Source: Gnetum montanum (Eukaryota > Plantae > Gnetophyta). Taken from it: a stretch of 64,000 bases of DNA. The notes beneath the pieces are model-generated. The model was given only the letters and a program-made list of their open reading frames with translations, had not been told where the DNA came from and searched no databases. This document shows, piece after piece, positions 1 to 31,031 of this stretch. Made by a program: the position numbers and the translations under genes. The stretch covers positions 509,920 to 573,919 of the forward strand of contig MNCI01002560.1 in NCBI GenBank assembly GCA_015680685.1, written 5' to 3'. The stretch's first letter is position 1; each line of letters starts with the position of its first letter.

Positions 1-2074
1 ATCCATCCAAAACTTAACCTTATTGACATAGTTTACCCAAAAAATTCATTAAAAATTCATATGATCTCTAATTTTAGTTATTTTACTATGGATAGAATCA
101 TGAAATCATAATTTTTGTAGCCATGACTGTTACAACCAGAAATACATAACCGTTTTTACGTGGAATGTAAACAACTTAGCAAAAAATTGCAACTATCACC
201 ATGAATTCCATTTTGCATAAGGTTGGTAAAAATTTTGCCAACAATTCATTTGAGTTCAAAATGGAGTGATTCCATAATTATTTGAAAGATTATATTGATC
301 CCTAAGCATCCATGTTTGATAAAAATTTAGAATGCTTGTTGTTTATGCAAAAAGCATTCACCAATTTGGATAAGAATCTGAAAATAGTATAAACCTCCTT
401 TTAACCTAGGTTTAGCAAAAAAATCATAAAACATTCACTTTAAAGACAATTGGAGTGATTCCACATCCATTAGAAAGCTGAATCCAATACCTACCTAGTG
501 ACAGGTAAGAAATAGGAAATACTTTGGTTGTTTTCTTAGGAACAATTTGTGAATTTACATAAAAATATAAAAATAGCATAGAAGCCTAACTACATGACCT
601 TAGGAAAACAACCATAACTTAACCATTTCAAAGTGAAATCAAATTAGATAACAACCATTGGAATTGAAAAATATGTAGCAATTTTCTTAGAAGAAAATAT
701 GAAACATTGCTTGCATTTTTCATCTAAAAAGTTAAAATGCTAAAACCCAATTTAACATAGCCACGAAAACATAGCCAATATAGTTGAAAAAATCAATACC
801 CATTAGAAAATATATGAAAAGTATGGGATAGGGTTTCATTGAAATTTAATTTTGATGAATATCTTAGCCTAGATTTGAGAAAAATGCCCATACCCCTAAA
901 TTTTGAAAAAAAAACCATGAAAAAGACAAGCTTGATTTTAGAAATCAAATCTACGAAAGATACAACAACAAAATGTCTATGGATATATGTAAAAATAGTA
1001 AAAAATAGTGGCATTTTATTAGAATTTGATTTTACCCCATCTATTAGCATAGATGTAAGAAAAAATGGCACCATAAGTGGTAAGAAAAATATAAAAAGTA
1101 ATAAAAATAGCTAGAAAATAAAGCAAAAATAGGTAGAACTGCCTACCTTGGAGTAGAGATAGATGAGACTTGGATGAAGATAGGTGAAAGAAATTCTATT
1201 AGGTCTCTAGCATGTTCATCCACCTTTTGAATCATTAGATTCTGGCTCTTTCCTCCACATTATTTTAGTGCGATGGTAATCTCAATGTAGGGAGTGGTGT
1301 GAAATTAAGAAGGATGAAAGTTCAATGTTGTGTGCAAGAAACATGGGAGGCTTCCATGCTAAGGATGGGTTGCTTCTGCAACAAAAATATTTTCCAGAGC
1401 TCTATTCCAATGTTTAGTTTGCAAGAATGTTATTTATGATTGAAAACTTATGAAATTTGGCATTAAAAACTACATCTAAACCTAGATGGCCATGTCTAAA
1501 ATCCAGCTACTAATTCAGTGCACCATAACTCTAAGTGCACTAAAGTGAAAAAGGAAAAAAGTATTTTCCATGCTGGTTTTGGTGGAAAATAGCTTCACTT
1601 TTCAAATTTTAAAATATTTGGGTTGTGGGCTTTACTATACATCTTTCCTCTTAGTCAGGAATCACACCAATGCTGGGTTTTAGTCCCTTAGGCATCTAAA
1701 GCCATAACCAAGCCTTAACCTTCCATGCTTGGATGCTAGGTATACCATGCCTTCAACTTTTTAAAAAAATTAAATAATAACTATTTTCCATTTTTAGTAA
1801 TTAAGACTTATCTTTTCCAACCCCAAGCTTCCAAAAAGGGATGGAACATAGACAAATCTAGGTAAGTTAGGCTTGCATGTTGATGTAGTAGTGCCAAGTG
1901 TGGAATAAGAGTGGTAACATCCATTCTTCACCTTCTAACATCAATCTAGCCCAATGTTAACCCCTATATTAGGCCTACATGGCCTAGAAGCCCTCCAAGC
2001 ATCCTTGGTAGCCCCAGAACCTTAGCAAACCTAGTCAAAATTGTTCAAAGCTAGTCAAAACCTTGGAATTTGAT

Positions 2075-4770
2075 GTTTTCACACTAGGATAGGCTTCATC
2101 AAGGTTGATCATCTCATCCCCAACATGGATAGGTTGGGGGAAGCTATAAATAACCTAAATTATTTACTTAGTAACCATTTATCAAAGCTTGGTGATTCGT
2201 AGACCCTACTAGAACTCTTTGAAGCATCTGAATGCTTCATAAGTAGTTAAATATTGCACAAGAATGTCATCCTCCTCTCATCCTTGCTAGGGCCATCATT
2301 TCCAACATTGAAGAAATGATGAGACTACATGAGGAACTTAGGAACCTCCAAACTATTGGATCTTGACACCCAATATTGATTGTCAACATTGATAACCTTG
2401 AAGACTAACATGCATGATCGATTGAGTGTTGAACGAGCATAGATCTGACTTTCTTAGCTCTTCTAGACTAGGGGAGATCTCTTCCATGCTCCCAACATGA
2501 AAAATTATGGGTATTTGCTAGTAAAGTTAGTGAAAGATCCAAAGACTGAGAAAAGAACCTCAAATTACCTTGTTCCTAACACTAGAACCTTCATAGTCCT
2601 TCTAGATGCCACTAGATTACAAAGAAAAAAAATCAACCTCCTAAGGTTCTTCCATGCTGGGAAGGATCTCCTCCATGATAAGAATTTAAATATTAGTGTG
2701 GATGGAAGGGGAAATGCCAAAACTATTGAACATGACATGTAGTTTAACTTTTGGTAGCAACCCAAACCTTTTGAAAGCCAACCGACTTTTGAAAGTCACT
2801 TGAAATGATCAAAACTTGCTCCATTGGGTTTTTCATGCAAAGGAAGATTCCATTCATGCTAAACATCGTACCCTCAATGTGGATGAAATGGGAAAAGCAT
2901 TAAGACCATCTCATAGCCCTCAAAATGTCAAGATCTCTACCCTGGACATCGGTAGTGAACACCAACAACCCTATGGACATGCATGCATAGTCAAAACTAT
3001 CAAAAGCTAGTAAAACGTAGGCTCTTCTAGTTTCTCCACACTAAGATATTCATCCTCCATGTTGGCTAGTGTGGAGGAAAGGGGAAACATTTTGAGGAAC
3101 ACCAAAATAACCCTCAAATACCTTAAAAAAATGCTAGAAAGCCCTATCTGTGTTGTAGGAATCTGTCTCCTCATCCTAGAATCCTAAAACCCTAGGAAAG
3201 TAATCATAGATAGCCAAAAAATATTTTCCACTAATATTTTCCACTAATAATGGAAACCCTAGTATGGAAAAATGTGAGAAACATCAAAAATCATTTCATA
3301 ACCATTAAAATAACTAAATTTTAATACTAGGTAGCATCAATCAACATTAGCAACCTTTGCAAGCTACATGCATGGCCAGAAATGGTGTAAATAATCAAAA
3401 AGATACTTCCTCTAGTATTCCATTCTAAGAATACTATCTCCCATGTTGAAGCTTAAAAAACCATTTAGAAAACCTACAAATTTGCCAAGCTTGACCTCAA
3501 ACCCTAGTCCTTGACATTGACAACCTTGAAGGCACACATGCAAAATTGATTAAGGTTGAAATTGTCTAGATCTAGGATGTATTATTCTTTCACACTAGGG
3601 ATATCTTCCTTCATGATACTAATAATGGAAAGTTAGGGGCAAAATAATTTAGGGCTCATAAACACCTCAAAATGACATCAAATGACCTTACATGCATTAT
3701 AGAACCATGGTAGTAGCTATTGAAGCCTTCAAATAATCAAAAATTGATGCCAGATGGTTAAAAAGTGGTTTCCCCTAGTCTTCCATGCTTAACTCTCTAA
3801 CCATATTGTTAAAAAAAAGGATAATTCTAAAGAACATGTGGAAGTACTCAAAATTACCAAATTTTAACATGAAACCATAGCCCTTGGCCATAGCAACTCT
3901 GAAAGTTGACATCCATAGTCAAATGTTATCCAAATTGGCCTAGATATAATATTCTTATCTCATCCATGATGGAGATGATTTCCTCCATGTTTGGTAGTGT
4001 GAAAAAAAAGTGGAAAGCTACTTTTCCACTTTGGATGACAAGAGAGCACTCACAGAAACCAAGGATGTATGCTAGAGAAGCCTAGGACCTCATAGCCTTA
4101 AGATTTTTCTTGATTGAACTCATCTTGACTTCCAGAAATCCATTTCCCATAATATTCCATGTTTTATAAACTCCCCCAATGTGGAAACATGTTGGGAGGC
4201 CTTAGGTACCCTTAAACAACATTCAAACGTGTACAAAATCAACTTGAAACTTGTAGAATCATGATCTATAGCCCTAGGGGCCTAGGAGCTTGGTCAATGT
4301 GCTTCTCAATCATCTTGAATATAAGAAATAATTCCCCCCCTCATATTTCCATGTTGGGGATACTATAATTAGTGTGGAAAAGGAGGAGATGCTTTTTAAA
4401 CATATTTTGACTTAAAAAATTACCTTAGACTACCTCAAAATGAAGCTAGGGAATGCATAACTCCTAGATCTGAGTTCCAGCTTCCTATTTGACCATGTTT
4501 GATTTAGTTTTGGCTTGAATCCTGGTTCTCCACACTGAATGCCCTATCTTCCACACTGAGAATCATGGAGATAAGAAGGGAAGGGTTCAAAACCTTTTTT
4601 TTAGACTTTATAGATCTCTGGAGTGCCCAATTTTAATAGATTTGGCCTTGTGCTACCTTGCAGAGGTCCTAGAACCTCAATTTTTGGCCTCTAGATGCTC
4701 CAGAACATACTTTCTCTAATTTTTATGATAAGGGTCACTTCGTTCACATTGACTAGTGTGGAAACAAGGG
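2075..4770. repeat. ~190-bp-period array of TCCA(C/T)(A/G)(C/T)TRG motif clusters (element A)
   Basis: Clusters at about 2079, 2461, 2651, 2820, 3035, 3226, 3408, 3588, 3781, 3963, 4145, 4335, 4529 and 4712, with diverged spacers. Confidence 0.7.
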
Positions 4771-5478
4771 GGGCCTAATGTGAAAGCGATAAAACACTTG
4801 ATTTTTAGGTCCAAACAATCTAGAAGCAACCCTGACTGATGTCCAAACTTACCTAATAGCCTTGTAGCCTTAAATCATGGCTTGATAAGGTTTAAAACTA
4901 GTAAATTGTAATAATTTTTTGACCTATATTATCCAAATTCTATCATATGTAGCCTATTTTGCTTGATTTTTGCTTTATTACATTGTGTTTTAGCCTATTT
5001 CTGGACTTGTGTTGCCATTGTTAACTTTGTAGACCTTCTTGTGGCCTTTATGTAGCCTCATATTCTATTTATTTATCTTATTATAGCTTTATTTACCTTT
5101 TTTTGCCTTTTAATATATCAAATAATGGGGTTTGACCTTCCTTAACCACCATTTAACACAATGTGATCATGGCCTGCTTAGGCCTTAAACTAGCATCATA
5201 GTCCACCAAGATTCTAAACTGGCATCATGGCTTGCTAAGGCCTAAAACTGGTGAAATTGTGGCCTTTGTTAATCATTTGTAGCCTTATTTATTATATTTT
5301 CCCTTTTTTGACCTGTATTCGATCTTTGTTTAACATTTATTCAACTTTGTCAAATTGTTCCTATCTCATTGATGACCTTGGATGGCCTTCTTTACATTAG
5401 ATTTGCATGTATTTGCATAATGTTATAACATTTGAGCATTATTTATTTAATTTTACGTAGATTTCATATAATATCCTT

Positions 5479-8400
5479 TTGGTTGATATGTGGGATCAAA
5501 GTATGAGTACTTGGGAGAAAATTAGTTTGCCTTTGTATCTACATGGATCTCATGATCATGTTGAATGTTGTATTAATCCTAATTGCCTAGATCTTGAGCT
5601 TCTTGTGCATCACATAGCCTCAATTAAGAGACCTTTAGAATGGCTTGAAAATGTAGTCAAAACATTTAACTTAGAAGTAGGTTACATAACTAAATACTCT
5701 CTAGTTGAGGATCCTATCACAACACACAGTAATGAGGAGAAAACTAAGTTCCTCATTGGAACCTCAATGTGCTCAAGACATCACCAAGGTCCTACAAAGT
5801 AACATTAAGGTATTTTCCTAGTCATATGAATACATGCTAGGCCTAGAACCATGTTTATTCTAGTACAACATCATACTAGGCGCTAGCATTAGACTAGTTA
5901 AGAAAAATTAAACAAAACTAGGCCTAATTTGGCCTTGGTAACTCGTGATGAGATCTCAAAGCTCTACCAAGCTGATTACATTAGGGATGTCAACAACGCC
6001 AACTGGGTATCCAATATAGTGATAGTCCCTAAGAAAAATTGGAGTATTCATATTTGCATTGATTTTTGAGATCTAAATAAAGTAATCATCAATGATAGCT
6101 TCTCTTTGCCTAGTATTGATAAACTTAACGATACTATGGCTAGACATTCCTTATTATCCCTTATGGATGAATTCTCAGGATATAACCAAATTAGGATCAA
6201 CCTAGTTCAGCAACTTAGCATGGTCTTTATGATCCCATGGGGTACCTTTTGCAATAATATGATGTCATTTGACATTAAGAATGTTGAAGTGACCTATCAA
6301 TGAGCCATGACCTATATATTCAGTGATTACATGTTAGGTTTACTTAACGATTACATAGATGATATAGTTGTGAAGTTTAAAGTGATCAATGATCATGCTA
6401 ATGACCTAGACCTTGTTCTTAAACAATGCCATAAATATAAGCTTAGATGCAACCCCAAGAAATTTTCTTTGGTGTTAAGAATAGTAAGATGCTTAGCTTT
6501 GTAGTCTCTGAAGTAGGAATATGCATAGATCCTAATAAGGTTAAAGCCATATCCAAATTAGCAACACCTACAAACATTAAGGAGCTTTGGGTATTGCATG
6601 GTAGATTACAATTTATTTTTAGGTATATCACTAGGCATATAGATAAGTTACAGTAGATGCAACTCTTACTTAAGAAAGGAGTTCACTATGAGTGGATTTC
6701 TTAATGCCAAGGGGCCTTTTAAAAAACTTAAGCAAGAGTTGAGACAACTATTGATAGTTTATTTTTTGTAAGAGTGTAAAAAATTCTACATTTACCTTCC
6801 TATCTCTGACACATCCATTGCCTCTCTACTCTTTCAGAAGCATGATGATGGAGTAGAAAAGCTAGTGTACTATCTTAGCCATGCACTAGCTACCCATGAG
6901 ACTTGATAAATTGAAGTGAAGAAGTATTTTCTAGCATTGGTCATCTCTTTTAAGAAGTGGAAACACTACCTTTTCAGAAGCCAAGTCAATGTCATTTACA
7001 AAGACAACATACTCAGAGTCATAAAGACTAACATTTACTAAAGTAGCCATATAGCCTAATGGAAAGCCATAACCATGGAATTTGACATTCATTACTTCTC
7101 TCAATCCTCAACAAAAGGTCAAGCTATAGCCATACATAATAAAAGTTTTCTTGTCAATGACCAAGCAATGATAGATCTTGAATTCCCTAATAAACACATT
7201 AACCTAGTGCCAAATACCCAAGGATGATGAGGTGATCATGCACTTTGATAGAGCTTCAACTACTTGTGAGACTAGTGCTATTGCCATCATAACATTTCCA
7301 TTTCATGAAATTGATCCTTTTCCTATCATTTTGAGTTTCCATGTACCAACAATGTATTGGAGTATGAAGGTTTGATCAAAGAGATGATGGTAGCTCTTAA
7401 TCTAGGAATTAGAAGCTTAGCAATAAAAGGCAATTCACAACTTGTGACTAACCAAGGAATCAAAGTCTATGCATGTAAAACCAAATACTTACAATAATAT
7501 TGTGACTTAGAAAATTAATTGTTACAATAATTCATAGACTTTCATATTGAAAACATACCCAAAAATGTGAATCCCATAGTTGATGCAATAGTAATGATAG
7601 CCCTTAGTGTGATGCTAGATGTGTTTAATAAGTTTCCCATATTATCTATGAACATTGCTACTCCCATCACGTAGAACACTAAGGATGCCTTTGTGGTTGT
7701 TGTTCATACTAATCTTGCCATGGAGTGGTATGATGATATCAAATTTTACATTATGCATGGAGAATTATCACAAGGTTTGAGTACTACTCAAAAGGACCCT
7801 ATATACTAGTGGATGAAATGCTACATCATCATAGGTGATAAAACATTGCATTGAAAATCCTATGATGGCATACTCCTAAAGTTCATAGGTAAGATAGAAG
7901 CTAGAAGAGTCCTAGAGGAGGTTCACAAGGATATTTGTAGAGAACATATAGGACCATGAGCTATGGCCACTAAGATTATATGGTTGGGCTAATATTGTCC
8001 TTATATGGAAAATGACTACCTAGAGAAAGTTAAGCAATGTGACACATGCCAACAATATAGAAACCTCATACATGTACTACGAACTGAGTTGCATACAACT
8101 CAAATAAGATGGCCATTCCAATCATGAGGCTTGGATATCATTGGACCCATAACATCTAAGTCTTCCATAGGACATAGCTTCATCATCACCAAAACCAAAT
8201 ACTTTACAAAGTGGTTTGAGGTAATTCCCTTAAGAAAGACTACATCCAAACAAGTCTAGAAGTTCATCCTAGATAACATTGTAGCTTGTTTTGGCATACC
8301 CATGATCATAGTTATGGAATATAGACCATAATTTAGTATCTAGGAAACAAATAATTTCTATCATGACCTACGCATTAATCATTCTTTCTTATTATCGTAT

Positions 8401-8965
8401 TACCATAAAGCCAATAGGCAAGTAGAAGAAACAAGATCATCATTAACTTACTCAAAAATATTCTCAACAATAACAAGCTCAAATGGCATGAGCAGCTTGT
8501 CCTTACACTATGTGCATATAGAACAACCTATCACATAGCAATTGGTATGACCCCTTATAACTTGGTTTATGGTTTTGATGTTGCTTTATCTCTTGAATTA
8601 TATAGGTTCCATTGCTCTGAGTAGCCTTGATCAACTTCATCAATGAAGAGCAAAACAAGGAGTTGTAAACAATAGCCCTAGACTCTATGGAGGAGCAACA
8701 TATGCAAGTGCTTACTCACATTAAACACTATTAAGAGAGGTAGAAGTGGCAACATCATCATAACTTAATCATAAATAAGATCAAAGATGATGACTTGGTC
8801 ATCAAAGCCATTCACTAAGATATGGATAAATTATTAGTTAACTAGGAAGGACCCTTCCTCGTCACTAGAGCTTATGGTAACAAAGCATTCAGGATAGTTG
8901 ACATGGATGGGAATGAGCTAGTCAATCTGGTTAATCATTCCTATCTAAAGCCATACTACATGTAG
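5479..8965 (+). pseudogene. pol: RT-RNaseH-aRH-integrase (pol) pseudogene of element A
   Basis: RT motifs PSIDKL..LSLMDEFSGYNQI, YIDDIVV; aRH MHFD.AS / TNNV.EYE.LI / G.SQLV.NQ (~7240-7460); integrase GLDIIGPI...YFTKW; ends LKPYYM*; many stops and frameshifts; no gag or protease directly upstream. Confidence 0.92.
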
Positions 8966-9189: not shown

Positions 9190-10681
9190 TTAAAACACCA
9201 CAAAAATTTGAATGTTATAGTTAATTTTCAACATGTAACTTTCACCCCATAAAACTTGAGGTAAAACTTCATTGTAAATGTGAAGATTGTAATCCATGGA
9301 GGGCAATCTCACATATCCCATGATTTTGGGGCTAAAAGACACCTCATAAGTGGTCAAAGATTCATACCCTTAGTGAACAATATCATTAGTATCTATACTC
9401 AAGCTTAGGAACATCAAAATCACCTTTTGGAATGCCAAAAATGGTAGTTTAATGGGTTTTATTGAGGTATATATTTTTCTACACTGGAAACACTTCTGGG
9501 GGCAAATCTCACCTACTCCTATCATAGAGGAGTGGGGGGTTTTCCCTTAGCTTGGAAATGTTTTTTCCTAGTGTGGAAACTACATGACCCCATCATGGAA
9601 GACACAAAAGTTAGATTTTAACACTTCATGCCCTTGAATGTTGACCAATTATTTCAGCTAGGATGGTAGAAGGTTCAGCATGGATGATCTATCTTCAACA
9701 TAGAAGGTCTGCCCTCATTAATCTTTATAGGAAATGTAATGGTGATGGGGGAAGGAATTTACCATATAGAGTAAGCCTCAAAATTTTGGCACCCATCTCA
9801 TCTATATGAGAAAAAAATTTGCAACTAAATTATAACTAATTTGCATTCATTATGCAATCAAATTACAACCAAATTACAGGCATTTTGTAGCACGATTCAT
9901 GATCCAAAATCTATAAAACCTAGTCTCAAACACCATTTATAGGTTTAGAAACTTTTGACATACATACACTTTTGTGGTTTTAACAATTTTTACATAGTTC
10001 AGTAATTTGTTCATAGTTCTACACTTGAGCATTCTCAAGCACTTAAGAGTTCTTACAAGTTTCCACACTTGTACTCTCTTGAGTTTAGTGTAGAAACCTT
10101 CTAACCTTGTGATATTGTAAAATCTTTGGGATTTGTAAATTTTCAAGCTTCATGTTGCACTATTGGGATTTTCAAATCCTAGAGTAGAGTACTTGAGTAG
10201 CTTAGATTCTTCACACTTGTCAATCTTTCATCATAGCCAATGTTGCAGATCTAGAGTAGCAGCATAGGAGGTTTGATAGCATCAGGAGTGGTAGAACATC
10301 TAGCTAGTGGAGTTGACTACAGTGACTTCAATAAACCTTGAACCCCCATTAAAGTGAATCCCCCCTACTACCCACTCAAGCACCATTTGTACACATTTCT
10401 CTAACTTGTTATGTATCCTCTCTTAATAAAGTTTTAAGTCCTCAATTTTGTATGCAAAATATATTTTTTTAGCTTCAGTGCATTATTTATATCTATTATA
10501 AGTTTTAGCATTCAATTTTTATTACTTCGTTATTCATTTCGTGAGTCCCTGGTTGATCTACTAGACTAGCCAAGGTCTCTCAAATCCCATTTTCCTAGAG
10601 GCCTTGAGTATTCATGGGTTAAGGACTCCTACGCATCAGATCAATCGATCTTTCTAGCAATTGATTTTTCTAGTCACAACA
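9190..10681 (+). repeat. 3' LTR of element A
   Basis: Begins ttaaaacaccacaaaaattt, matching the reverse complement ending at ~37694; TATA-like ctataaaa at ~9911; ends ...cacaaca where element B's integrase resumes. Confidence 0.65.
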
Positions 10682-13600
10682 CATCATACATAGCTCCTTG
10701 CTTTATTAATAATTGATGAAGTTAGACAGGCCCTCTCAAAGAAATAGTACATGTAATTCAAGAGGTAAAATAGCTTCAGAACCATAAACAAGGCTATACA
10801 GAGTTACACCTATTGTAGTACAATATGTTTCTCGATATTTTCAAACTGCATGGAAAAGCTACTCATGCTACTTGCATTTACTATTATTTATCATCTTCTT
10901 AGGTAAGTTGATAATGGACTTATTACTTGCTTCTAATTTTCCATTGGCTTGAGGGTAATAAGGTGAGAAGAAAGAGTGCTTAATGTCTAGGTTGTGAAAG
11001 AAATTTTTTATTTCTTGGCTACTAAACTATGGTCTATTGTCTATGGCTATGATCATAGGTATACCAGCATGGGCTACTATATTGTCTAGGATGAATATAT
11101 AGATTTGTTCATATGTAGTATTCCTTAGGGAGATAGCCTCAACCCACTTAGTAAAGTATTTGGTTATGGTAATGATGAAACTATACCCTATGGATGAGTT
11201 AGGCATTATATGTTTAATGATATCCAACACCCATCATTGAAATAGTCATGTTATCAGAGTAGTGTGTAACTTAGTTAATGGTACATGTACTAGGTTACTA
11301 TGCCTTTGACATGTGTCACATCACTTTCTACAGCCAATAATTTTCCATATAAGGCTAGTAATAACCTAACTATCTAATCATAGTAGTCATGGCTCTAGGT
11401 TCTATATGTCCACCATAAACACCCTCATGAACCTTCTCTAGGACTATTTTGGCTTCGGCTCTATTGAAGAACTTGAATAATATACTATCATAAGATCATA
11501 GACATAGTGTATTATCGCCTAAAATGACATATAATTTTGATCATTTATGTACAAAATCCTTTTGAACAACAGTTTGGCCTTGTGAAGACTCACCATACAT
11601 AAGGTAAAACTTGATATCATCATACTGCTCCTTTATAGGAGTGGTATGAACTACAACAACAAACATATTCTCAACACTTTGCATGATGGAGATAGCACAA
11701 TTCATGGTTAAGGTGGACAACTAGCTAAAAACATTTGATGTAACACTAAGGGCTAGCATTGCAATTGCATTAGCTATGGAATTCTCATTTTGGGATACAT
11801 CTTAGATAGCAGCATCTATAAATTGTTGCAATAACGGTTTCCATAAATCATAGTAAGGTTGTAAATGTTTGGCTTTGCATGCGTAAACCTTGGTTACTTG
11901 GTTGACGAAAAGTTATGAATTTTCCTTAATTATCAAATTCTTAATTCATAGGCCATGAGCTACCATCATTCCTCTAATCAAACTTTCATACTTTGCTATG
12001 TTATTACTGCATGGAAACTCCAATCGATAGGTGAAAGATAAAATTTCACTCGATGAGAATGTTATGATGGAAAAGACACTAGCTTTGTGGTCAGTTAAAG
12101 CTCCATAAAAGTGCATGAGGCACCCATAATCCTTGAGCACTTGGCTAATGACATTGATGTGTTCATCAAGAAACTCAAGGTCAATAATTGCTTGGTCATC
12201 AATAGGTGAAATAGTAAGTTGTACAACTATAACTAGACCTTTCGTTGAGGAATAAGAGACTTAATGAAGGTCAAATTCCATTGTTATGGGTTTTCATTGG
12301 GCTATATGGATACTCTCATAAATATTGGTCATTATAGCTCTAGGTATGTTATTCTTGCAAATGACATTAACCTGGCTCCTAAAGAGGTAGTATCTCTACC
12401 TCTTTAATGAGAAGACTAGTGTTAAACAATACTTCTTCAATGAGAAGACTAGTGTTAAACAATACTTCTTCACTTTAGTATATCATGTCTCATGGGCAAC
12501 TAATGCATGGATAAGGTACTATACTAGCATCTCTACTCCATCATCACATTTTTGATAGTGTAGAAAGGTAACATACATGTTTGAGATAGAAATATAGATG
12601 TAAAATAATTTACTCTATTGTAGAGTATAGATTGTTAGTAGTTGTGCCAACTCTTGCTTAAGGATTTTAAAGGCTTCTTTGCATTGAGTCATCTGATCAT
12701 AGTGAACCCTTTTCTTAAGCAAGTATTACATGGATTGCAAATTATTTGTAAGCATAGTGATGAACATTCAAATAAATTGTAATATACCTTGTAGTCCCTA
12801 AAGCTCTTTGAGGTTAGTTGGTGCTACCAAGTTGGAGATGGCCTTAACCTTATCAAGATCAACATGTATCCTTGCTTCTAATACTACAAAGACAAGAATC
12901 TTATTAGTTTTGATACTGAAGACATAGTTCTTAGGATTAGGTCTATGTTCAAACTTAAGACATCATTTGAGAACAAGGTCTAGGTCATTAGCATGGTCAT
13001 TGGCTAGTTTGGACTTAACAACTATGTCATCTACATAATAGTTGAGGAATCCTAACATGTAGTAACTAAAGATATAAATCATGGATCTTTGATAGGTTAC
13101 CCCTAAATTCTTAAGGCCAAAATACATCATGGTATAGAAAAAGGTATCCCAAAGGTTGTGCTAAGTTAGTGCTCTAGTTTGATCCTAATTTGGTTGTAAC
13201 TCAAGAACCAATCCATAAAGGATAATAAGGCAAGGCTAGCTATAGTATCAATGAGTTAATGGATACTAGGCATAGGGAAATTGTCCTTTATCGTTGCCTT
13301 ATTTAGGTTTTAAAAATCAATTCAAATATAGATACCCTCATTTTCCTAGGGACTACCATGATGTTGGATACCCATTCCATGTAGTCAATAGCTCTAAGGA
13401 AACTAGCTTGGTATAGCTTGGTAATTTCATCACAAACTTCCATTGCTATGTTTGGTCTAATCTTGGACATTTTCAATTTAACTAGTCTAATTATAGGATC
13501 AAGTAAAATGTTGTGTTGGACTAATTTTGGATCTAAAACTAGCATATTTTCATAAGACTAGGCAAAGGCCTTATTGTTGTCTTGTAGAACCTTGGTGATG

Positions 13601-13900
13601 GCTTAAGTTTGTTGAGGTTCTAATGAGGAACATAGTTTAAGGATTTTCTCCTTACCACTATGAATTGTTACAAGAACCTCATCAAGAGAGTGTTTAGTAA
13701 TGTCACTAGCTCCTAGATCAAGATTTTTAACTAGGTTTTCAAGCCACTCTAGAAGCCTTTCAATTAAGGCTACATTGTTAATAAAAATCTTAGGCTTAAG
13801 ATCTAGATAATCAGGATCAATATATTGTTCAACATCACCATTATGCCCACTTAGGCTGAAAGGTAAGGTAATTTTGTCCAAGTGTCCAAAATTCAATCAT
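10682..13900 (-). pseudogene. pol: RT-RNaseH-aRH-integrase pseudogene of element B, truncated in the integrase C-terminal region
   Basis: ORF fragments LDPKLVQHNILLDP..., MHFYGAL...FPCSNNIAKYESLI, LDII...YFTKWVEAI; homologous to 5479-8965. Confidence 0.92.
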
Positions 13901-14377: not shown

Positions 14378-17300
14378 GACTATGCTAGGCCCTACTAGTG
14401 ACTAAGCTAGCCTAGCATAGTCCTACCTACCTATAGCATAGTTAACCTTCAATGGTAATTTATAGGGATTGAAATGGTCATTTTTGAGCTCCCACTAGGT
14501 TAAACAACTAGCATAGTGGTAGGTATAGAAAATTGGAAATTTTTGACACCATTTTGACTTTATATAAGGTTGAAATTCATGTTCCAAGAGGTGACTATGC
14601 TAGGCTAGTAAGCCTCAGCATAGTCACAAGGAATGACCAAGTCAAGACAAAGTGAAATTTTCTCTTGGATGGCCATGGGGACATGGTTTTGGTCATTCTA
14701 GGTTAATTGTAGGCCATTATGACTTGCTTACTATGAATTTTCATCACTACATGTTTCCTTCCAAGTGGGACTACACTAGCCTGACATAGTCCTTGGCCTC
14801 TGTAGCATAGTTATGAGTGGAAAATGGATTTTGGTGAGTTTTAGAGCTTGATCAATCATCCTAATGGGCTTTTGGGATTACTAGTGTTACCAGCTAGGGT
14901 TTTAGTGTAGAAATTATCAATTTTCATGCTTGTTTGGGCCTTGAATTCCAAAGGACCATAGGACTACATTAGGTATGTAGTTCCTAGCATATTCAAGGAT
15001 TGTAGTTGTAAAAGGGCTATGAAAGAATAAATTTTGGCTCATTTCCCAAGGTTCCAAGGTCTGGGCATGTTCTAACAATGTTCTATGTCTTTTTAGAAGT
15101 CAATTTCAGTATTTTTAGAGCTATTTTGGCCATGAACAAGTGGACTATAGTGGTCTTGGGTAGGGACTATGCTAGCCTAGTGTAGTCCCAATGCTTCCTT
15201 CAACATAGTCACATTGAAAAGGATGAAAAACTAAGTTTCTTTACTAAATTTAAATATGATGGGCCATGAAACTCCTATAAGTGTAGTTTATGTGATTTTG
15301 GTAAATTTTTGTAGAAGTTTACGTAGACTACGTTGGGCCTAGAGAGGGACTACACTAGCCTAGCATAATCCCAAATTTTTCTTATGTAGTCCATGCTCTA
15401 GAGGTCAAAAATTAAAAAAAATTATGTTCCAAAATCAGTCAAAATTCAAAGAGCCTCCAAGGTTCATTGATATGGAATTTGATATTTTTCTTTTGCAACT
15501 TGAGAATTTTAGTGGGGACTATGTTGGGGATTGAGGGGGGCTACATTGAGCTAGCATACGCCTAACTCATCCTTAGTGTAGTCATAGTTTGGGGGTTCAA
15601 GAATAGTGGATTTTAACTCAAATGTATGGTTTCAAAGTATTTTTGTGTCATAGAAAGGTCTTGTAGTTGATAGAGGTGTTTTTTGGGTTATATTTAGACT
15701 ACTATGAAGTTCATGGTGTGGACTACATTAGGCTTGGACTAAGACTACATTGATGTAGCATAGTCCTACCTTCTTACTAGTGTAGTCCAAGGATGGATGG
15801 TTATAGGGAGTTTCCATGGTGAACAAGGAGTTCCAAAAATGTTATAGAGTCAACTAATAGTAAACTAAGGTTATTTTGAGGAAACTTTAGTTCCTTTCTT
15901 GTGGACTACACTAAGCTTGAAGAAAGACTATGCTGGTCCAATGTAGTCCCAACCTTTCCTTAGTGTAGTCAAGGTTTTGGTAGTCAAAGATCATGAGAAA
16001 TTCAAGTTTTGAGATCACAGAGGCTTGGGTAGGCTTTCCAAGCTTGTCGATAGTAATTCTAGATCACATGGGATAGTTGTTGCATAGTTTATTGATGGAC
16101 TATGACGGGCATTAGGAAGGGACTACATCAGTGTAGTGTAGTCATCCTTCCCTCTTAGCATAGTCCAAGTAGGAATGGTCAAACTAGGTGTAAACAACAA
16201 GTTTTTGATGTTAAACTAGCTAGGATAGGGTGTTAGGATTTCTTCAAGGTCAAACTTCATACATTTTTGGTGTGTCTTGTCAATTTCAATGAGACTACAC
16301 TAGGGCATATAAAGGGACTACACTAGCCCAATGTAGTCCCTCTTCCCACCTAATGTAGCCATTATCAAAATTGTTAATATGTGATAAAAGAGTAGGTTTC
16401 ATGATCGTATAGGGCCAAAATAGGGTATTGGGGTTGACTAGTGCTAAGTTTCATGATTTTTGATGTTTCTTGGTAGCCTTAGTGGAACTACACTAGGCCT
16501 TGGGTAGGGACTACACTAGCCCAACATAGTCCCATCTCCCCATCTAGGGTATTCCATGTATGGATGCCAAAAGTGTAAAAGTGGTAAGATTTGGCTAAGG
16601 TTGATGCTCCAGTGTTTTCAAAAGTTCAAATATAATTCATAGATGATGGTCTCTTGGGTTTTTTGAGTGGACTACACTAAGAAATCACTGGGACTATGCA
16701 AGCTCAACATACTCCTCATAGTCCTAAATGTAGTCACATGTAGAAACTTAGTTTCATGGGATTTCTTAAGGAGTTTTATTGATCAACTAGTACAATGGGC
16801 TTAGTAGGGATCTTGGAAAGGTATGGAAGCTTTTAAAGGTAGTGTTGAAGGTGGGTAAAGGTCTCTATGATGCCTACCAATCCTAGAACCTTAGGACTAC
16901 ACTAGCCTAATGTAGTCCCTAGGTCTCCTTGGCATAGTCATGGGGAAATGGGAAAAAGTGGCATCATTAATTATAATTGATCATGCCTCATGCTTGTCAG
17001 AGGCTCAAACTAGCATTTGGTGAAATGCTGTCAATTCAAGGTTAATTAAGGGTTGAATGGATTGGGATAATTTCTTGAGGTTGTAGGAGGTAAGATGTGA
17101 TGTTGGACAATGCTAGGTAGTAGTTGTGCTAGCCCAACATAGTCCTTCAGTTCTCTTAGTGTAGTTAATGAGGAGGCTTGATTCTTGTCACACTTGGAGT
17201 GCTTTTGATCTATTTTTGCTACTATCAAGGGTTCTAGATAGGGTTTGATAAGGTTGGGTAGTTAATTTGGAGGCCTTTAGAAGTTGTATGGGCTATTGGA

Positions 17301-17645
17301 AGTCCATCCCATTATGGACTACATTGGTAATAGTTGGGACTACATTGGCCCAATGTAGTCCTTATCCTCCCTTTAGCATGGTCACTATTATGTTGTCAAA
17401 ACCTCTCATACTTGGCCACATTCTTATGTTGTAGGGCATCTAATCCAAGGTTTAAAGAGATAAGGTAGATGTGGTAGTTGTTTTATATATTAAGGTTGAC
17501 TACTCTTAATGTAGTCATGGCTTGGAGGTTGACTACTCTTAGTGTAGTCATGGCTTATTTTCCATTCTTGGAGCATCCAGTATGAGGCCTAGGTAAAATT
17601 AGTAATTTTTAAAAAAATATTTACACAACTCTAGCATAGTCCTAG
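14378..17645. repeat. ~190-bp-period array of GACTACGCTG-N3-CAGCGTAGTC-derived palindrome clusters (element B)
   Basis: Examples: gactacactagcccaatgtagtcc and gactatgctggtccaatgtagtcc; cluster starts 15143, 15326, 15517, 15721, 15904, 16098, 16293, 16488, 16670. Confidence 0.85.
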
Positions 17646-19512
17646 TTTCCATTTTTGAAGCCAATTTAAGTAAATTTCTAAAAGGAAACTAGGGTTCTGG
17701 GATGGGCACCTAGGTTTGGATTGGTTTTAAATTGGAAAACTTGGAAAAATTCTTGTTATTTGTCTTACTTCTTGCCATTGTGGCTTGGTTTGAGAGCTCT
17801 ATTTCCATTGTTGTTGCCCACTATCCTACTCAGCATAGTACTAACTACTTTTAAACAATTGCTACTATAGTCTAGCTATTAGTGCCAATTGCCAACATAA
17901 TAATTATAGGCTTACCCAAAAACCAAGGATTTCGTACATTCCAAGACCTATTTCTAATACCATGGTGAAAAAAATAGCTCCTATGAGGAATCTTGCATTA
18001 AAGGTGATGGATGCCAATGTTGAAAGCCTACCATGTTTGCCTCATCCAGGAATTGAGAAGAGTTCTACCATCGTCTTTCCCAAGTTCATGATTCTCACCA
18101 ATATCTAATATTTTTCATGTATTATATTTTTCAAATCTATGCTTGTGTATTTGTTATTTTTGTTCATTTTGTGAAACTGCTACCTCATATTTTGGTCTTC
18201 TCTATGTAGATCTAAGGCCACTTGGTTTTTTTTTTTTTCCCTTGGTAGATTAGATTTTTAAAATATGTTTGTGGTTTTGGTGCTTTTTTCTAAAAATTTT
18301 GTGTTATGGCCAATTTTTCTAGGTCTACACTACAATGTTAAGAAAAATTTGATTTTAAACAAATCCAAACACTTTATTTTGAGGTTTCTTTAATGTGGGT
18401 ATGATTGTTTTGACTATTTTGACTAGATCAAGTTAAGTCTCACAAGTTCTCTATTTTGGAATGCTTTTTTGAGGAAAAAAGAAAGTAATGTTATATATTT
18501 TTTATTAAGGAAATATCTATAATTTTGCAAAATATAAGATTATTAATTTTTATATCTATGTTTAAGGTTTCTAATGGCTGTAGTTCCATTTGATTTAGAG
18601 TTCTAATGATAAAATTATGGCCATTTGAGTTGGGTTGTGTAATTAGGTTTCTTTGCTATTTTTCAGATTTCATTAATGTTTATAATTTTTTAAAAAAAAA
18701 ACAAGGATTTTTAATTTTTTATTGCATGGGTATGTAGGATTGAATTTAATCTTTCAAATGGTGGTAGAATCACTCTATTTTGAGCTCAAAAAAAGTTTAG
18801 TAATTTTTTTTGCAACCTTGTGTGAAAGAGTTTTCATGTTGATGGCTATGGTTAAGCCACCTTGGTAATTTTTTTGAAAAATAGGTTAGTATTTTTAATT
18901 ATTTATTATTATAGGTATATATTTTAAGGTTTTATGATTCCAATAGCTATGGAATCATCATATTCTATTAAGAAGTTAATTAGTTATGGTTGTTTCTATT
19001 TGGTTGCACAAAATCATGGTTACAAGGTTGTTACGCATATACCCCTATGAAGATGGGTAATGTGGAGATTGTAAAAATTTTTTCTTCATCAATTTCCCAT
19101 GATCTTGGGGATAGTTTAGGATGTTAGGGAGAGGCTAAAAGTTTTTTGGATGAAAATGAAATATTTTTCTTATTTTTTCTAAGTGTTTTCCGATGGCCGT
19201 ATTAGTGTTAAGTGTGAAATTTGGTTGAATGTTGGTTGTGGACATGGGTTGTATGTTGAATTTTTTCTAAGTGTAGAATTTTAACATGGAAATTGAGAAT
19301 TTACTCTTATACTTTTAATTTCATGTTTTTCGTCCTAAGTTATCAATTCAATGTTTTTTCTCGTAATTTATTATTTTACAACTTTAGTTCTAAAGATTCA
19401 TTTTATATAAGCTATTTCAAATTTTTTCTAAGTGTTATTTTCTATGTTTAATGATTATAAGGCTTTGGTTTTAAGTTTTCATGATTATAATTATTTTTGT
19501 TTGATGTTATAG

Positions 19513-22500
19513 GGCCTTCTTGAAGCCCATTTTGGTGGTAATAAAGATGTGGACTATTTTGTTACATTCACCTCCTCGAGCCTAACTCCCCAGTTCCTGA
19601 TATGGAATGGGATCAAAATAGGATATGGTTTAGGCCAAGCACCAAATAATTAATTGCATACATCTTAAAAAACATTAGTGTGATGGTATGATCACACTTG
19701 ATGACTGAAGTTATAGCAATGATTATAGAGACCATCCTACTTGGGTCTTTTAGCTTAATCATTGAGTTTTTGATGAATGAACTTGAAGCTCATGTGGAGG
19801 GAGTGAGAAAATGATGGCACTACTACTATGGATTCTCAAAAATTGTTAACAATTTGGGAGATGCTAAAATTTAGTCAATATTATATGGAAAACCATATAA
19901 TTGTTGGCCATCATGCTCATACATTATTTTAGAATCCTGTAGGAACCATTTATCATGTAGAGGGGTAAGTAAGGATTTTTTTGGTTTATGGTTAATTTCT
20001 ATAGTTGTAAAATTAATTTATAACAATTTTTTATTATTTCACTTGCTTATAGGTTCAAGATGGATGAGTGGTGCTTGATCAAAGATGATAACCTCTTACT
20101 GCAAACCCATATAGCTTTAGAGGTATTCACCAAAAGCCCAAATGTAAGGCTTGTAGTGTTGGAATAGATAGAAGGTGACATTGAAGCTAGCTCAAACATC
20201 ATTCTAAGGCTTATACGAGATGCCTAGGGAATGGCACAATGGATAGCTAATGGATCAACCCATATCTCAATGACTTAGACATAAGCCCACCCCCTAGAGC
20301 TCCTAAGATGCCTAAATCTAATAGGCAAAGTAAGTGCTTTTATGCTTTGTTGATTTTAAGTTTTTTGAATACTACCATTTTTCTAGTTATTTTGATTTGA
20401 ATTATTTAAGTAGTTTTATTTGTGTTTTAACTTAGTTAAATTTTTGTTTTACATGATGCACCTATGCTAAGATTAGTGAGATATCCTTTCATTATGTTGT
20501 AGAGGCCACTCCATCAGTTGAAGTTACTATTGTTACTTTAGGACATGCTAAAGAGATCCTAATACTTAAGTTAGTGAGGTGGAATTCTCATAGGAATAGT
20601 TATCAAAACACATACTTGATGCTATACAAGTGAGAGGCATACACGTGGGCCTATTTGACCTCTTCATTAACCCAAGCTTGATTGTTCCCACTGTAGAGAT
20701 GTTGAACATAAATAACTACTATAGCCAAGGGGTTAAAAAGTTGATCACTTATGTTGATTGTGTGACCATTGTTATAGAGGTTATTTTATCCATCTTCAAT
20801 GACCTCTTTGGCATTCCAAATAATGGCATGCTAGTTATCACCAAAGTAGGTAGGGAGTTGGATCACTGGGAGGAAGTAGATAAGTTGCTAGACACACATT
20901 TTTGTACTAAGGGATACTTTCTCAAATAGATATAGTCACCATTGATTAGAGAAATGTATTCCTTATTTTGATCCTAGGGATTTCCTAAATTATTATTGCA
21001 AGGGAAGATCTTGGGCTTGGAGTAAGATTGGACCATGAAGTAGGTGCTTACTAAGGATGCTTGTTTCAATTAGGTTGCACACTTGGTTTCTAGGATATAA
21101 TGGGAGATCAAAAAGCTTGACAACAACCTCACTATGTAGTGTTATGACACTTTGCACTTTTTGTAGCTTATTTATGAAGGTTTTTAGAGTTTCTAGTGGT
21201 GTGGAAGGATGGATGATAAGTTATCCAAGATCCATCCCAACTTACCAAACCTTAGGTGAATCTCCTTGCTCTAACCACATACACCTAGGACCTACTAGAA
21301 GCTATGGGTGAGTCAATGTCTATTGCTATCAAGGATATTACTAGTAGGCATTATGTATCCCTTGATAGCATGGGGGTAGAGCCTCTCACAATACCATCTA
21401 GCATCAAGAAGGCCTAAAAACTACATAAAGAGGCTAAGGGAATAGCTAGGACTAAGCTTAAGAAGCCTTTAGCATATGAACCAGTACTCATGATCAAGGA
21501 TCCTTTGAAGAAGCAATAGTTGACCATCAAAATGATAGTGTATGTCATGAAGTTAGATGTATGTTATATCTTGGTTTATTACTCTGTTAATTTGTTTTAA
21601 AGTTATGGTTTTAAGTTAGTTACATATCTTCTTTTAGATAAATCTTGCTAAGTTGTCCATGTTCTTACAATTAATGTTCTTGTAGATAAGTAGCAAGAAT
21701 GGGAAGCTAGGGCTATAGTGGCAATAGCTGAGGCAAGCCAAAGGTGTTAGGAGGAGGAGAAGCTACAACACTAGGAAGAAAAATACTGAAACATTATGAG
21801 GATGATGTATTGAAAAAAAATGACTTACCCCCTATTCCACCTATGGGCTGCTTTGTTGCCATGCTAGAGAATCCACAAATGAGTGAACATCTTATTGGTA
21901 TATTGTATGGTCTCTTAGGTATGTATGATCTTCGATTTTACATGTTACTTTTCATTGATTCATGCCTTTTTTTTTCTATGGTTGTTAATTACTTACTACA
22001 CTTGTTATAGCCCAAGAGCCTAAGGAAGAAGCCTTCACTTCTACCTTTCACAAGATACCATGGGTGGAAACCCCAAATAACTTAAATCTATGTGGGATGT
22101 AGCTAAAGATATGATTAACTACTTGTAGTAGATAACTCTTGAGATTGGTAAGAATTTTATCTCATTTTTCCTTTACCATTTTTTACATTTTTAGTCTTTT
22201 ATTCAATTTCCATGGTTATGTAGCTTTTTGTTACTACGTGATTTTATTCATTATACATTGCTTTATGTTGGTTAAAGTGCCTAAATTGACATGGGATCCT
22301 GACAAGCCAATGAAGGTTGATGCATCACCTTCTTTACCGTTTAATTTAGAGAATGTCCCACATGGGCTATATGAGGATGCCACTGGATGTGCACTCTGAT
22401 GTGCTAAGTCCCTATGGAAATGTAGATTCTTTAACAAGTTCCTATAAGAACAAGTTGTAGGATAGACCTCATGGACCATAGATACTTCATAGAAGTCCAA

Positions 22501-23220
22501 GTGGATAATAGAAACTTGTTGCGCACTAGGGATATAACTTGGGCTTGTTATTGGAGTGTAGTACAAGGAAAGGCTTTTCTTGTGATCTAAGTAGTATAAC
22601 ATAAGCTCCAAATTGATCTCATCAACCACAAGGTTGGTGAGTGGAAAGATTACTATAGTTGGTTCCTTAAGTGAGGTCATACACAAAAGGATCACAAACA
22701 AACATACAAAGCTGAATGGGATGCCTACCTGAACTAGCTAAAGGAGGAGTCTATGGAGCAATGTAAGCTAGAATTGTTCATGATGGGCACCAATGTAGAA
22801 GAGGTGTATAAGATGTTTGTAAAGAATGTGATTGTAGATAACTCCCCTATTCATTAGGTTACTATTTCATCAAGGGAAACATCCACCACCACGTTCTTGC
22901 ATGAACCTCCTACATGGAGTGACATTGATGGGACTAATATCCTAATGAGTATTGATCTTGTAGAAATGGATTGGGCCAACATGTCTAAAGACCAAATCCC
23001 CCACCATGTAGAGTTTGGTCTTCAAAACTTCCTTAAAGCACATGTAGTTCCAAAACCATATTAAGTTTTCTTACTTTTAATTTTATTTTTTTTGTTTAAG
23101 TTATTTATTTTGTCTTTATATGTATTGGTTACTAATCAATTATGTGTTACCATGTTAGACGTACTAGAAAACATTGGTGGCCCCAGTGGTGAGGGTGAAG
23201 ATTACACTATATCTCCTTAA
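19513..23220 (+). pseudogene. Antisense ~7-exon accessory gene of element B (decayed; product unknown, one exon resembles plant-transposon accessory proteins)
   Basis: GT/AG-bounded AT-rich introns; exons about 19513-19964, 20053-20329, 20503-21550, 21686-21918, 22011-22147, 22278-23060, 23159-23220; protein-level and splice-site conservation with 59501-62948. Confidence 0.75.
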
Positions 23221-23298
23221 TCATATGCCCCTTAGTTTCCTCAATTACTTTTCCATTTCAGTTGTTTTGATTTCATGTTGATGATGATGTATGGCTAG

Positions 23299-24538
23299 TG
23301 ATGAGTGGCAAGGTACCCCTACACTCCACCATACGAATATGAGCGTACACGCGCGATCCGGTCGAACTCCGCAGACTAAATGCCTTAACGCCACAAGAAA
23401 CACTTGGGGTTAATCATTCGTTGTCTTCCCAGGCTTGCTTGTATGTGTCACGGTGTATGGTTAAGCAAGTCTGAGGTATGTGATTTTTTTGGTATTTTCG
23501 GCTTATCTTCTATGCTACTAGGAGAAAGGGTTGAGAAAACTAAACTAACTCTTACTAAGATCTAACTCTAAATTAACTAGCGTCAGCATCCGTTCCCACT
23601 TACCGGACACACCCTGAACTATGCAACTGCAGCTTACCAAACGCTAATCGTTACTGGGATCGCCACACGTAACGCAAGTGCTCGAAGTGGTCGTACTGAG
23701 GCACCTATTTAGCCTACGTGTGATAAGCAGCCGATTCCTTAGCCAGCCGTACACACCCGTGGGTGCTCGTAACTAAGTCGTACTTATCACACGATCTAGC
23801 CTAGCAATGAGCAGCCGATTCCTCAACTAGCCGTACACATTAGACCCGGGAGTTACCAAGCGCAGAATCCTGGAATACGCTACTGGGTTACCAAGCATCC
23901 AATGCTCGTAATTGAGTCGTACTCATGCATTGCGTCAAGCAGCCGATTCCTTGACTAGCCGTACACGTCCGTAGACGCTCGTAATCAAGTCGTACTTGAA
24001 CGCACTAGGAAAGCAGGAAATAAAGCAATAAATGAAACCACGTGCTGCAAGGTTTATCCAAACAAGTTCGTCTTTATTGCCGTACACAACTTGGGTTCAG
24101 GTTACAAGCTGCTCGAATAAAGAGCCGTTCACTCTAGGACTCCTACTGCGGGCACATGGGGAAAAACTCTAACTCTGGAGTGATCAGTCTGCCAGAGCTT
24201 CGCTACACTAGCCAGGATTTGGAAAATAAAGGGAGTGCCACCTCTTATTTATAGATATGGCGGCGGGACGCGATATCGCGNNNNNNNNNNNNNNNNNNNN
24301 NNNNNNNNNNNNNNNNNNNNNNNNNNNNNNNNNNNNNNNNNNNNNNNNNNNNNNNNNNNNNNNNNNNNNNNNNNNNNNNNNNNNNNNNNNNNNNNNNNNN
24401 NNNNNNNNNNNNNNNNNNNNNNNNNNNNNNNNNNNNNNNNNNNNNNNNNNNNNNNNNNNNNNNNNNNTGATGCGATATCGCGACGGCCGCGATATCGCGT
24501 ACGCGATATGGCGGCCTAGTGTAAATCGCGTCTCATCA
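23299..24538 (-). repeat. 3' LTR of the young element (contains N gap 24281-24467)
   Basis: Same sequence as 30061-31260 (offset 6762); flanked by the PPT-like motif at 24539-24553. Confidence 0.96.
23580..24004 (-). ncRNA. Same four-module structured array (3' LTR copy)
   Basis: Matches 30342-30766 except for about 2 substitutions. Confidence 0.78.
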
Positions 24539-24553
24539 TACCCCCATGACTGA
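24539..24553 (-). promoter_or_regulatory. Polypurine-tract-like motif adjacent to the 3' LTR
   Basis: Minus strand TCAGTCATGGGGGTA immediately precedes the 3' LTR; same core at 25142-25154 and 26589-26601. Confidence 0.7.
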
Positions 24554-26372: not shown

Positions 26373-26550
26373 CACACACACACACACACACAAAAAGATA
26401 GAAAAATATAACGATGTTGTAAAACAAAAACAAGAAAAGTTAAAGAAATTTGTAAAACAAAAATTAGAAAAGTTAAAGAAATTGTAAAACAAAAATGTGA
26501 AAAACAAAAACGTTGTAAAACAAAAATGTGTAAAACAAAAACTGAAAAAG
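26373..26550. repeat. (CA)n microsatellite followed by TGTAAAACAAAA-type A-rich repeats
   Basis: Directly visible; U-rich on the element's sense strand just after the gag-PR stop. Confidence 0.8.
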
Positions 26551-26569
26551 AACTGAGGGCCCCATATGA

Positions 26570-29914: not shown

Positions 29915-30041
29915 TTCTATTGGTGTGCTAACTTCACCGTTATTTATTGTTCTTGATTAACTGATTAACCCTAAGGTTCGTTTTAAGCTCACAACGATGT
30001 GAGTGATATCCCTTATGTTAAATTGGCGAAAAAACACTTAG

Positions 30042-30059
30042 TCCCCGGCAACGGCGCCA
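30042..30059 (-). promoter_or_regulatory. Primer-binding site complementary to the tRNA-Asp 3' end (Athila-type)
   Basis: Minus strand reads TGGCGCCGTTGCCGGGGA one base after the 5' LTR, complementary to plant tRNA-Asp ...TCCCCGGCAACGGCGCCA. Confidence 0.93.
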
Positions 30060-30341
30060 ATGATGAGTGGCGAGGTACCCCTACACTCCACCATACGAAT
30101 ACGAGCGTACACGCGCGATCCGGTCGAACTCCGCAGACTAAATGCCTTAACGCCACAAGAAACACTTGGGGTTAATCGTTCGTTGTCTTCCCAGGCTTGC
30201 TTGTATGTGTCACGGTGTATGGTTAAGCAAGTCTGAGGTATGTGATTTTTTTGGTATTTTCGGCTTATCTTCTATGCTACCAGGAGAAAGGGTTGAGAAA
30301 ACTAAACTAACTCTAACTAAGATCTAAGTCTAAATTAACTA

Positions 30342-30766
30342 GCGTCAGCATCCGTTCCCACTTGCCGGACACACCCTGAACTATGCAACTGCAGCTTACC
30401 AAACGCTAATCGTTACTGGGATCGCCACACGTAACGCAAGTGCTCGAAGTGGTCGTACTGAGGCACCTATTTAGCCTACGTGTGATAAGCAGCCGATTCC
30501 TTAGCCAGCCGTACACACCCGTGGGTGCTCGTAACTAAGTCGTACTTATCACACGATCTAGCCTAGCAATGAGCAGCCGATTCCTCAACTAGCCGTACAC
30601 ATTAGACCCGGGAGTTACCAAGCGCAGAATCCTGGAATACGCTACTGGGTTACCAAGCATCCAATGCTCGTAATTGAGTCGTACTCATGCATTGCGTCAA
30701 GCAGCCGATTCCTTGACTAGCTGTACACGTCCGTAGACGCTCGTAATCAAGTCGTACTTGAACGCA
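30342..30766 (-). ncRNA. Array of four structured cis-RNA modules in U5/5' leader (5' LTR copy)
   Basis: Units 30342-30464, 30479-30555, 30566-30690 and 30693-30766 share conserved loop sequences while stems differ by compensatory changes; G-U pairs and cUACGg/cCACGg loops favour the minus strand. Confidence 0.8.
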
Positions 30767-31017: not shown

Positions 31018-31031
31018 ATATGGCGGTGGGA

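Follow-up and report, generated by a model that had tools for sequence, protein, structure and literature searches.

Nested Tat-like elements and their features

The window, i.e. the whole 64-kb stretch of DNA that was analysed, consists of nested plant retrotransposon DNA that is strongly decayed by methylation (CpG observed/expected of about 0.1 and CHG of about 0.3 in the old elements), and no element has both of its ends inside it. By self-alignment, the pol genes of A (+), B (−) and C (−) are related to one another, and a second region is present twice, in B and D. The pol genes of A (5461–8965, +) and B (10687–13870, −), both broken, are 72.3% identical with 0.101 transversions between them, while C, at 0.147 and 0.146 transversions, is the outgroup by pol. 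The Pfam domains (RVT_1, RT_RNaseH, RVT_3, Integrase_H2C2 and rve in A) follow the order RT, RNase H, additional RNase H, integrase. The additional RNase H (RVT_3; E of 1.4e-5 in A and 5.4e-6 in B) is a feature of the Tat clade (OTA), and its location after RNase H and before integrase, read in a single frame in A, gives the order that the accessible text of PMC6317226 gives for Ogre and Retand. The nearest named matches to pol are angiosperm proteins carrying these domains, at 24–35% identity, and P0001 is evidence that relatives with an intact integrase-encoding gene exist, 63–69% identical. Element A is classed as an old, methylation-decayed Tat/Ogre-like LTR retrotransposon.

B is inserted into the LTR of C (37695–38527), and A into the integrase of B. 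B is nearly complete on the minus strand, where a 5′ LTR (35983–37694), a primer-binding-site-like stretch (35960–35976), a probable gag-protease region (31950–35400), the antisense accessory gene (17950–23220, +, start approximate), the site array (14378–17642), an intron-like stretch and pol follow one another. The decayed primer-site-like stretch is perhaps akin to a tRNA-Asn site. The gag-protease region is broken and is recognised by a weak Retrotrans_gag match (E=0.22), by protease motifs aligning weakly with the protease of a neighbour (E=0.036) and by its position behind the LTR and primer site. The same order is found in A, with the 5′ end of the accessory gene (1–1260, −; probably the first exon and a long AT-rich intron), the site array (1350–4786), a pyrimidine- and AT-rich intron-like stretch with an AG just upstream of pol (4860–5460, +), pol, a purine tract and the 3′ LTR (9191–10681, +), whose 3′ limit is the resumption of the B integrase. 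Since the A LTR start matches the B LTR start, each element was compared with its own LTR. D repeats the junction of the gag-protease-side region with the antisense gene in the self-alignment; its array lies outside the window. In C, the accessory 5′ end is present and the long array is absent, a 0.6-kb slot (41950–42560) standing in its place that is either a deleted array or a pre-array state.

A young unrelated LTR element sits inserted behind the B antisense gene, and 23294–31260 is occupied by a young gag-protease-only LTR element with about 98% identical LTRs and an intact 1128-aa frame, without RT, whose LTR carries CG-rich GCGATATCGCGTAC arrays and repeated GCAGCCGATTCC boxes. A younger Tat element, at about 53000–57700, has the TatI/TatII order, in which the additional RNase H precedes RT. 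This neighbour adjoins elements of the Ogre/Retand order, the two orders being reported from different plant groups; in the accessible text of PMC6317226, the additional RNase H before RT characterises club-moss and gymnosperm Tat clades. Over 2976–3676, contig X5 of another organism differs from our sequence at 9/702 positions and, over 3126–3676, contig X6 of another organism at 19/550, so that the insertion is likely older than the split of those organisms.

Another short shared element, of the GGCCTTAAAC type, is repeated in sense orientation after the protease, within the intron-like stretch that precedes RT, and after the integrase; its copies lie at 5181, 5239, 9007 and 9036 (+) and at 14262, 31519, 31554, 63334, 63493 and 63522 (−). 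It is possibly an RNA-processing signal or a second protein signal. As it is alike in A, B and D, the divergence between subfamilies does not extend to every cis element.

The antisense genes of B and D (59500–62950, +, broken) share seven introns at homologous places by their donor and acceptor sites, compared by eye, two of which are decayed in B, and their proteins are similar. From these splice sites and this similarity, the spliced antisense accessory gene adjoining the array in B and its spliced homologue in D are judged to be real. The A gene lies mostly outside the window; its 5′ intron (95–973) is alignable with that of B (18226–18940) at 60–66% identity, and contains an internal duplication of about 190 bp (207–475 vs 396–663). 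With the E-value limit set at 10, none of 24 frames of this heavily decayed gene in B and D had a Pfam match, a two-sequence HMMER profile had 0 matches among 1.84 billion representatives, and word searches with exon 4 (against longer proteins only) and exon 7 (against proteins of near length) as well as a PDB search returned no match. The AlphaFold model was unusable (pLDDT 29), and a codon-position test between B and D was without clear signal. By eye, exon 4 may resemble Transposase_32/ATHILA domains, a likeness that none of these searches supports. In four raw-read runs consulted for RNA, 151–1027 reads per run were recovered, mostly less than 90% alike, with few on the arrays and without a splice joint.

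Subfamily-specific sites in arrays and LTRs

The sequence-only reading had described an array with a period of about 190 bp in both sister elements, with a different motif in A. Both points are borne out; the best cluster period is 189 bp in A and 194 bp in B (p=0.001 each), and the strings quoted for A are present (ctccacactaag at 3034 and tccatgttggctagtgtgga at 3056–3075), while the array start, placed at 2075, is moved to about 1350. The undecayed site would be HTCCACGCTGG in A and GACTACGCTGG in B. The ACGCTG core proposed as the only common part is indeed shared, yet it is too short, as C.ACGCTGG makes 8 of the 11 positions common to both. Within 2075–4770, the decay-aware A motif TCCACGCTGG occurs 26 times at ≤1 mismatch, against 2.1 expected and a maximum of 6 in 60 dinucleotide shuffles (8 exact occurrences against 0.08 expected), and the B motif once (0.38 expected); the A motif occurs once in the B array (2.7 expected). 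The first letters separate the two, with GACT opening 47/56 B sites and 0/40 A sites, and TTCC, CTCC or ATCC opening 27/40 A sites (TTTC a further 7/40). When the core alone was used for seeding, the commonest flank was TTCC in A (6/31 core matches) and GACT in B (26/38). The CG in the ancestral site is deduced from decay, this position now reading TG or CA in 34/40 A sites and 53/56 B sites.

The geometry of the sites differs as well. The A array holds about 19 clusters of 1–3 detectable sites, and the B array four-site clusters with offsets of 0, 22, 34 and 56 that form imperfect 67-bp palindromes. Neighbouring sites on one strand are separated by 21 bp in A (7/9) and by 22 bp in B (13/22, with 21–23 bp in 21/22); head-to-head sites are 11 or 22 bp apart in A (7/9) and 12 bp in B (12/16). 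Tandem Repeats Finder did not detect the A array, which is thus a series of sites in diverged units and not a homogeneous tandem repeat. Sister copies cover all 30 bins, including the array, in 4/4 runs, so that the array is a property of the family and not of one copy alone. Some sister contigs join 3076 to 3647/3653, skipping about 3 units, although the short side of this junction is only 21–24 letters. Viral contigs gave 0 matches to the B palindrome and 0 to the B RT. A scan of metagenomes with the B palindrome pattern gave one match, L001, an unrelated GC-richer hairpin where a longer perfect inverted repeat has the undecayed form of the 23-bp B palindrome in its middle, at 1428–1450; the context looks unrelated and the match is probably due to chance.

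Site matrices were trained on the arrays alone, with the LTRs kept out of training, and applied at threshold 10; counts within the arrays are therefore circular. The A LTR holds 7 A-type sites (0.40 expected, maximum 3 in 200 shuffles) and 0 B-type sites. A-type sites upstream of its TATA-like box are at 9477(+), 9519(−), 9547(−), 9568(−), 9590(−), 9675(−) and 9695(−), spanning 9477–9705. Among them are the four LTR sites claimed from sequence, recovered at 9477, 9568, 9590 and 9675 within 3 bases of the claimed positions and lying, as claimed, upstream of a TATA-like box (9911–9918, +) of presumed promoter function; further sites lie downstream of this box at 10061 and 10209. The B LTR holds 5 B-type sites (0.17 expected) and 1 A-type site (0.59 expected); four of the former (37282, 37141, 37102 and 36960) are listed ahead of a TATA-like box at 36709, and 36604 is downstream of it. 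LTR sites are mostly same-strand direct repeats, 20–22 bp apart. Deriving array and LTR motifs for each subfamily, as had been proposed, hence gave concordance in both subfamilies, A and B. The truncated LTR of C, with 0 A-type sites (0.20 expected) and 1 B-type site (0.03 expected), is not concordant; in the slot of C, 2 A-type sites were counted against 0.13 expected (2–3 in the feature map).

At threshold 10, coding regions and unrelated DNA had no significant excess of sites. Lowering the threshold to 8 gave marginal excesses of the A matrix in the B array (7 vs 3.0, p=0.05) and in B gag (8 vs 3.6, p=0.035), among 30 tests. The unrelated elements at 43500–52000 were not enriched (5 vs 2.75 and 2 vs 0.92 expected), and the B accessory gene region had 0 B-type sites against 0.62 expected.

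Homologous positions can be compared directly, as the U3 regions of A and B align (score 295, shuffle maximum 219), and so do the pol-side edges of their arrays (score 246, shuffle maximum 153). In the pol-side cluster, three sites with alignable flanks have TTC(C/A).. in A where B has GACT.., and the B dyad is longer by one base. By this alignment, the three homologous edge sites are read as having switched together between A and B. LTR site 9477 is a hybrid (TTCT...) that combines the first two letters of A with the fourth of B, and its ACGCTGG is kept in sister-copy contigs (103 loose ends in X1).

Helical spacing and the 10.25-bp signal

Distances between equivalent sites form a ladder near 171, 182, 193, 204 and 214 bp. 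Jittering whole clusters by ≤10 bp destroys the helical phase (p=0.002 for A at ≤2 mismatches; p=0.006 and 0.002 for B), whereas with the strict 1-mismatch site list of A the phase was not significant (p=0.086). Helical length steps can be mimicked in A where an end site has decayed; in complete B clusters this is impossible, and the eight spacers between these measure 115, 125, 137, 116, 127, 127, 125 and 115 bp. Spacers are alignable (z>4) in 20/105 A pairs and 6/28 B pairs, where they are 54–67% identical with several indels each, so that recent homogenisation is not the source of the shared motif. Their net length differences are mostly near 0, 10–14, 21–22 or 32, with exceptions of 7, 8 and 41. 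A constant site-free spacer of 147 bp, seen with hand-set borders, was rejected after a recount with objective site calls at threshold 6, which gave 147–149 bp in 5/18 A gaps and 148–150 bp in 3/17 B gaps; for this reason, only the helical ladder is claimed.

In the site-free spacers of both arrays, AA/TT/TA dinucleotides peak at 10.25 bp among periods of 5–20 (block-shuffle p of 0.0004–0.0008), with GG/CC/GC about 5 bp, i.e. about half a turn, out of phase. Aligned on 13 A and 11 B anchors, hand-chosen from about 19 clusters each, the AA/TT/TA signal is coherent in phase with the clusters (0.83 and 0.86). Without alignment, the arrays reached a power of 2.21 and 1.94 at 10.25 and the LTRs one of 1.79 and 1.98, compared with 1.04–1.25 for coding regions and about 1.3 for shuffled sequence; a broad excess (1.86 and 1.63) is also present in the AT-rich introns of the accessory gene. 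In the accessible text of PMC8228248, a 10-bp AA/TT/TA signal is described as a nucleosome-positioning signal, and stable nucleosomes are said to be able to imprint it through mutation bias. In either case, positioning or mutation imprint, the 10.25-bp signal would indicate nucleosomes phased to the clusters. These spacings and dinucleotides suggest that each unit holds a single positioned nucleosome and that the sites fall in the linker. As the 67-bp clusters of B leave only 115–137 bp, the outer B sites would extend into the nucleosome edges.

Proposed self-recognition, its alternatives and known systems

We consider it slightly better than an even bet that the array is a set of linker sites for the protein encoded by the element's own antisense gene, and that this protein, once bound, keeps the promoters of its own subfamily active. 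The 11-bp subfamily-specific sites, repeated in the element's own LTR, would likely lie between positioned nucleosomes, in the linkers, with the nucleosomes on the spacers, and the binder, likely the product of the element's antisense gene, would probably act as a dimer or tetramer. Its half-site preference and spacing would have changed between the sisters, from direct sites at 21 bp and head-to-head sites at 11 or 22 bp in A to 22 and 12 bp in B. Binding may protect the CG and CHG of each site or open the chromatin, exposing the LTR promoter and, on either side of the array, the divergently transcribed accessory and pol units, and the promoters of the subfamily could thus stay active in a heavily methylating genome. 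The earlier proposal of a co-evolving protein/motif self-recognition system is, in this sense, partly supported, by the cis pattern in two subfamilies.

Host transcription factors might bind the sites instead, each subfamily having tuned its array and LTR to different factors or paralogues while the antisense gene is otherwise employed. LTR U3 regions usually contain sites for host factors, the core C.ACGCTGG is common to A, B and weakly C, as would be expected of a conserved family of host DNA-binding proteins, a location in linkers would suit any factor, and the accessory protein has no DNA-binding domain detected by Pfam. Yet both half-site and spacing changed, over 40–56 sites and the LTR, between sisters just 10% apart by transversions, and the unrelated elements at 43500–52000 lack enrichment; we find this explanation unlikely, though worth keeping in mind. 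Less probable still is that the element's own protein binds the array as a repressor, an insulator or a copy-number control. Such a role predicts the same cis pattern, but a large, maintained, nucleosome-phased array between divergent units and upstream of the TATA would seem better suited to activation.

We give a similarly low probability to a neutral ancient tandem repeat, of which one unit was re-amplified per subfamily and whose indels and substitutions were later shaped by stable nucleosomes. A–A spacers are more alike than A–B spacers (17/105 vs 6/240 pairs at z>4), which indicates that units were re-amplified within A, and the contigs that skip units are in line with this; against it, sites are conserved where spacers are near saturation, and the same subfamily motif is borne by the non-repeated homologous edge cluster and by the LTR, which is outside the repeat. 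It is very improbable that the clusters act as RNA hairpins, whether in export, in packaging or in removing the long gag-pol intron by splicing: the B palindromes do lie in the would-be gag-pol intron, but their central dyad would leave a loop of 0–1 base, the LTR sites are mostly direct repeats on one strand, and helical phasing is a property of double-stranded DNA.

Returning to binding by the element's own protein, the comparison with other Tat elements begins with Ogre (PMC6317226, PMC4408406, in their accessible parts), which the A/B elements resemble in the separation of GAG-PROT from RT-RH-aRH-INT, in the additional RNase H between RH and INT, and in the very large size with internal repeats. 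The Ogre gag-pol intron averages 274 bp, and extra ORFs are tabulated 5′ or 3′ of the polyprotein in these sources; in B, where the gag-protease identity is weakly supported, the protease–RT interval is about 10 kb, with the later insertion excluded, in place of a short intron, and contains both the spliced gene in antisense and the site array. An Arg-type primer-binding site marks Ogre, a Lys or Arg type Retand, and a 5-bp TSD is a mark of both. Retand/Grande elements, as presented in the accessible text of PMC11963269, share with A and B an antisense accessory ORF adjoining family-specific arrays and encoding a proposed, predicted DNA-binding protein; no known function is given there for the arrays and ORFs. 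These ORFs, which code for TRP28, are located after pol and ahead of the 3′ LTR, whereas the A/B gene is elsewhere: the A integrase stops about 230 bp upstream of the LTR, and the accessory frames of B and D had no Pfam match to TRP28. Neither an LTR motif match nor nucleosome phasing is reported in that text. In the literature covered, which did not extend to subscription papers and bioRxiv supplements, neither this layout nor an LTR element with motif-matched arrays was described. What is new here is the combination of diverged spacers that differ by helical length steps with an AA/TT/TA signal of 10.25 bp that keeps phase with the clusters. The locus offers a testable answer on the role of accessory ORFs and arrays, supplying two cognate motifs with their exact spacings and one candidate protein, and, if the proposed mechanism is true, a natural nucleosome-positioning array with factor sites in its linkers.

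Another of the closest parallels is that of the VANDAL transposons. The precedent cited by the sequence-only reading agrees with the accessible text of PMC5735166, where the motifs bound by VANC proteins are specific to each subfamily and are located in tandem repeats that are non-coding. The likeness lies in short subfamily-specific motifs massed in the non-coding repeats of the element (here in two subfamilies), in a multi-exon accessory gene and in motifs that differ by few bases between related families. On the other hand, VANDAL is a Mutator-like DNA transposon, whereas A and B are LTR retrotransposons with RT, RNase H, integrase and LTRs. Their sites, unlike VANC targets, have dyads, nucleosome-scale helically stepped spacing, diverged units and recurrence in the LTR, and each holds CG and CHG, in which VANC targets differ; VANC motifs are arrayed in one orientation, and VANC21 binds introns of its own genes, whereas the B accessory gene region is free of B-type sites. 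The VANC domains (DUF1985, DUF287) had no Pfam match in the accessory frames of B and D, a decayed gene, and the PMD domain was not detected in the A/B system. We therefore regard this system as VANDAL/VANC-like in its cis pattern and not as a VANC member, with a putative role for the accessory protein. As VANC is structurally akin to MAIN (PMC13547354) and PMD ORFs are reported in Tat elements (PMC4408406, PMC6317226), each in the accessible part of the source, a deep evolutionary link of the accessory protein to VANC/PMD is possible. Perhaps, and with somewhat less than even confidence, an LTR retrotransposon lineage evolved its self-recognition system independently of VANC, its gag-pol intron having swollen into a cassette that would pair a spliced gene, whose product would be a new chromatin protein with sequence specificity, with a pre-built nucleosome array, whose linkers would display the methylation-sensitive sites of that protein; protein and sites would co-diverge, each subfamily opening its own LTR and internal promoters only. 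In the accessible parts of PMC12859917, PMC8616336, PMC6419827 and PMC12844716, VANDAL is the only system named for motif-based anti-silencing. If binding by the element's own protein is true, sequence-specific self-activation would extend from one DNA transposon group to LTR retrotransposons and would help to explain the spread of such elements in large methylated genomes.
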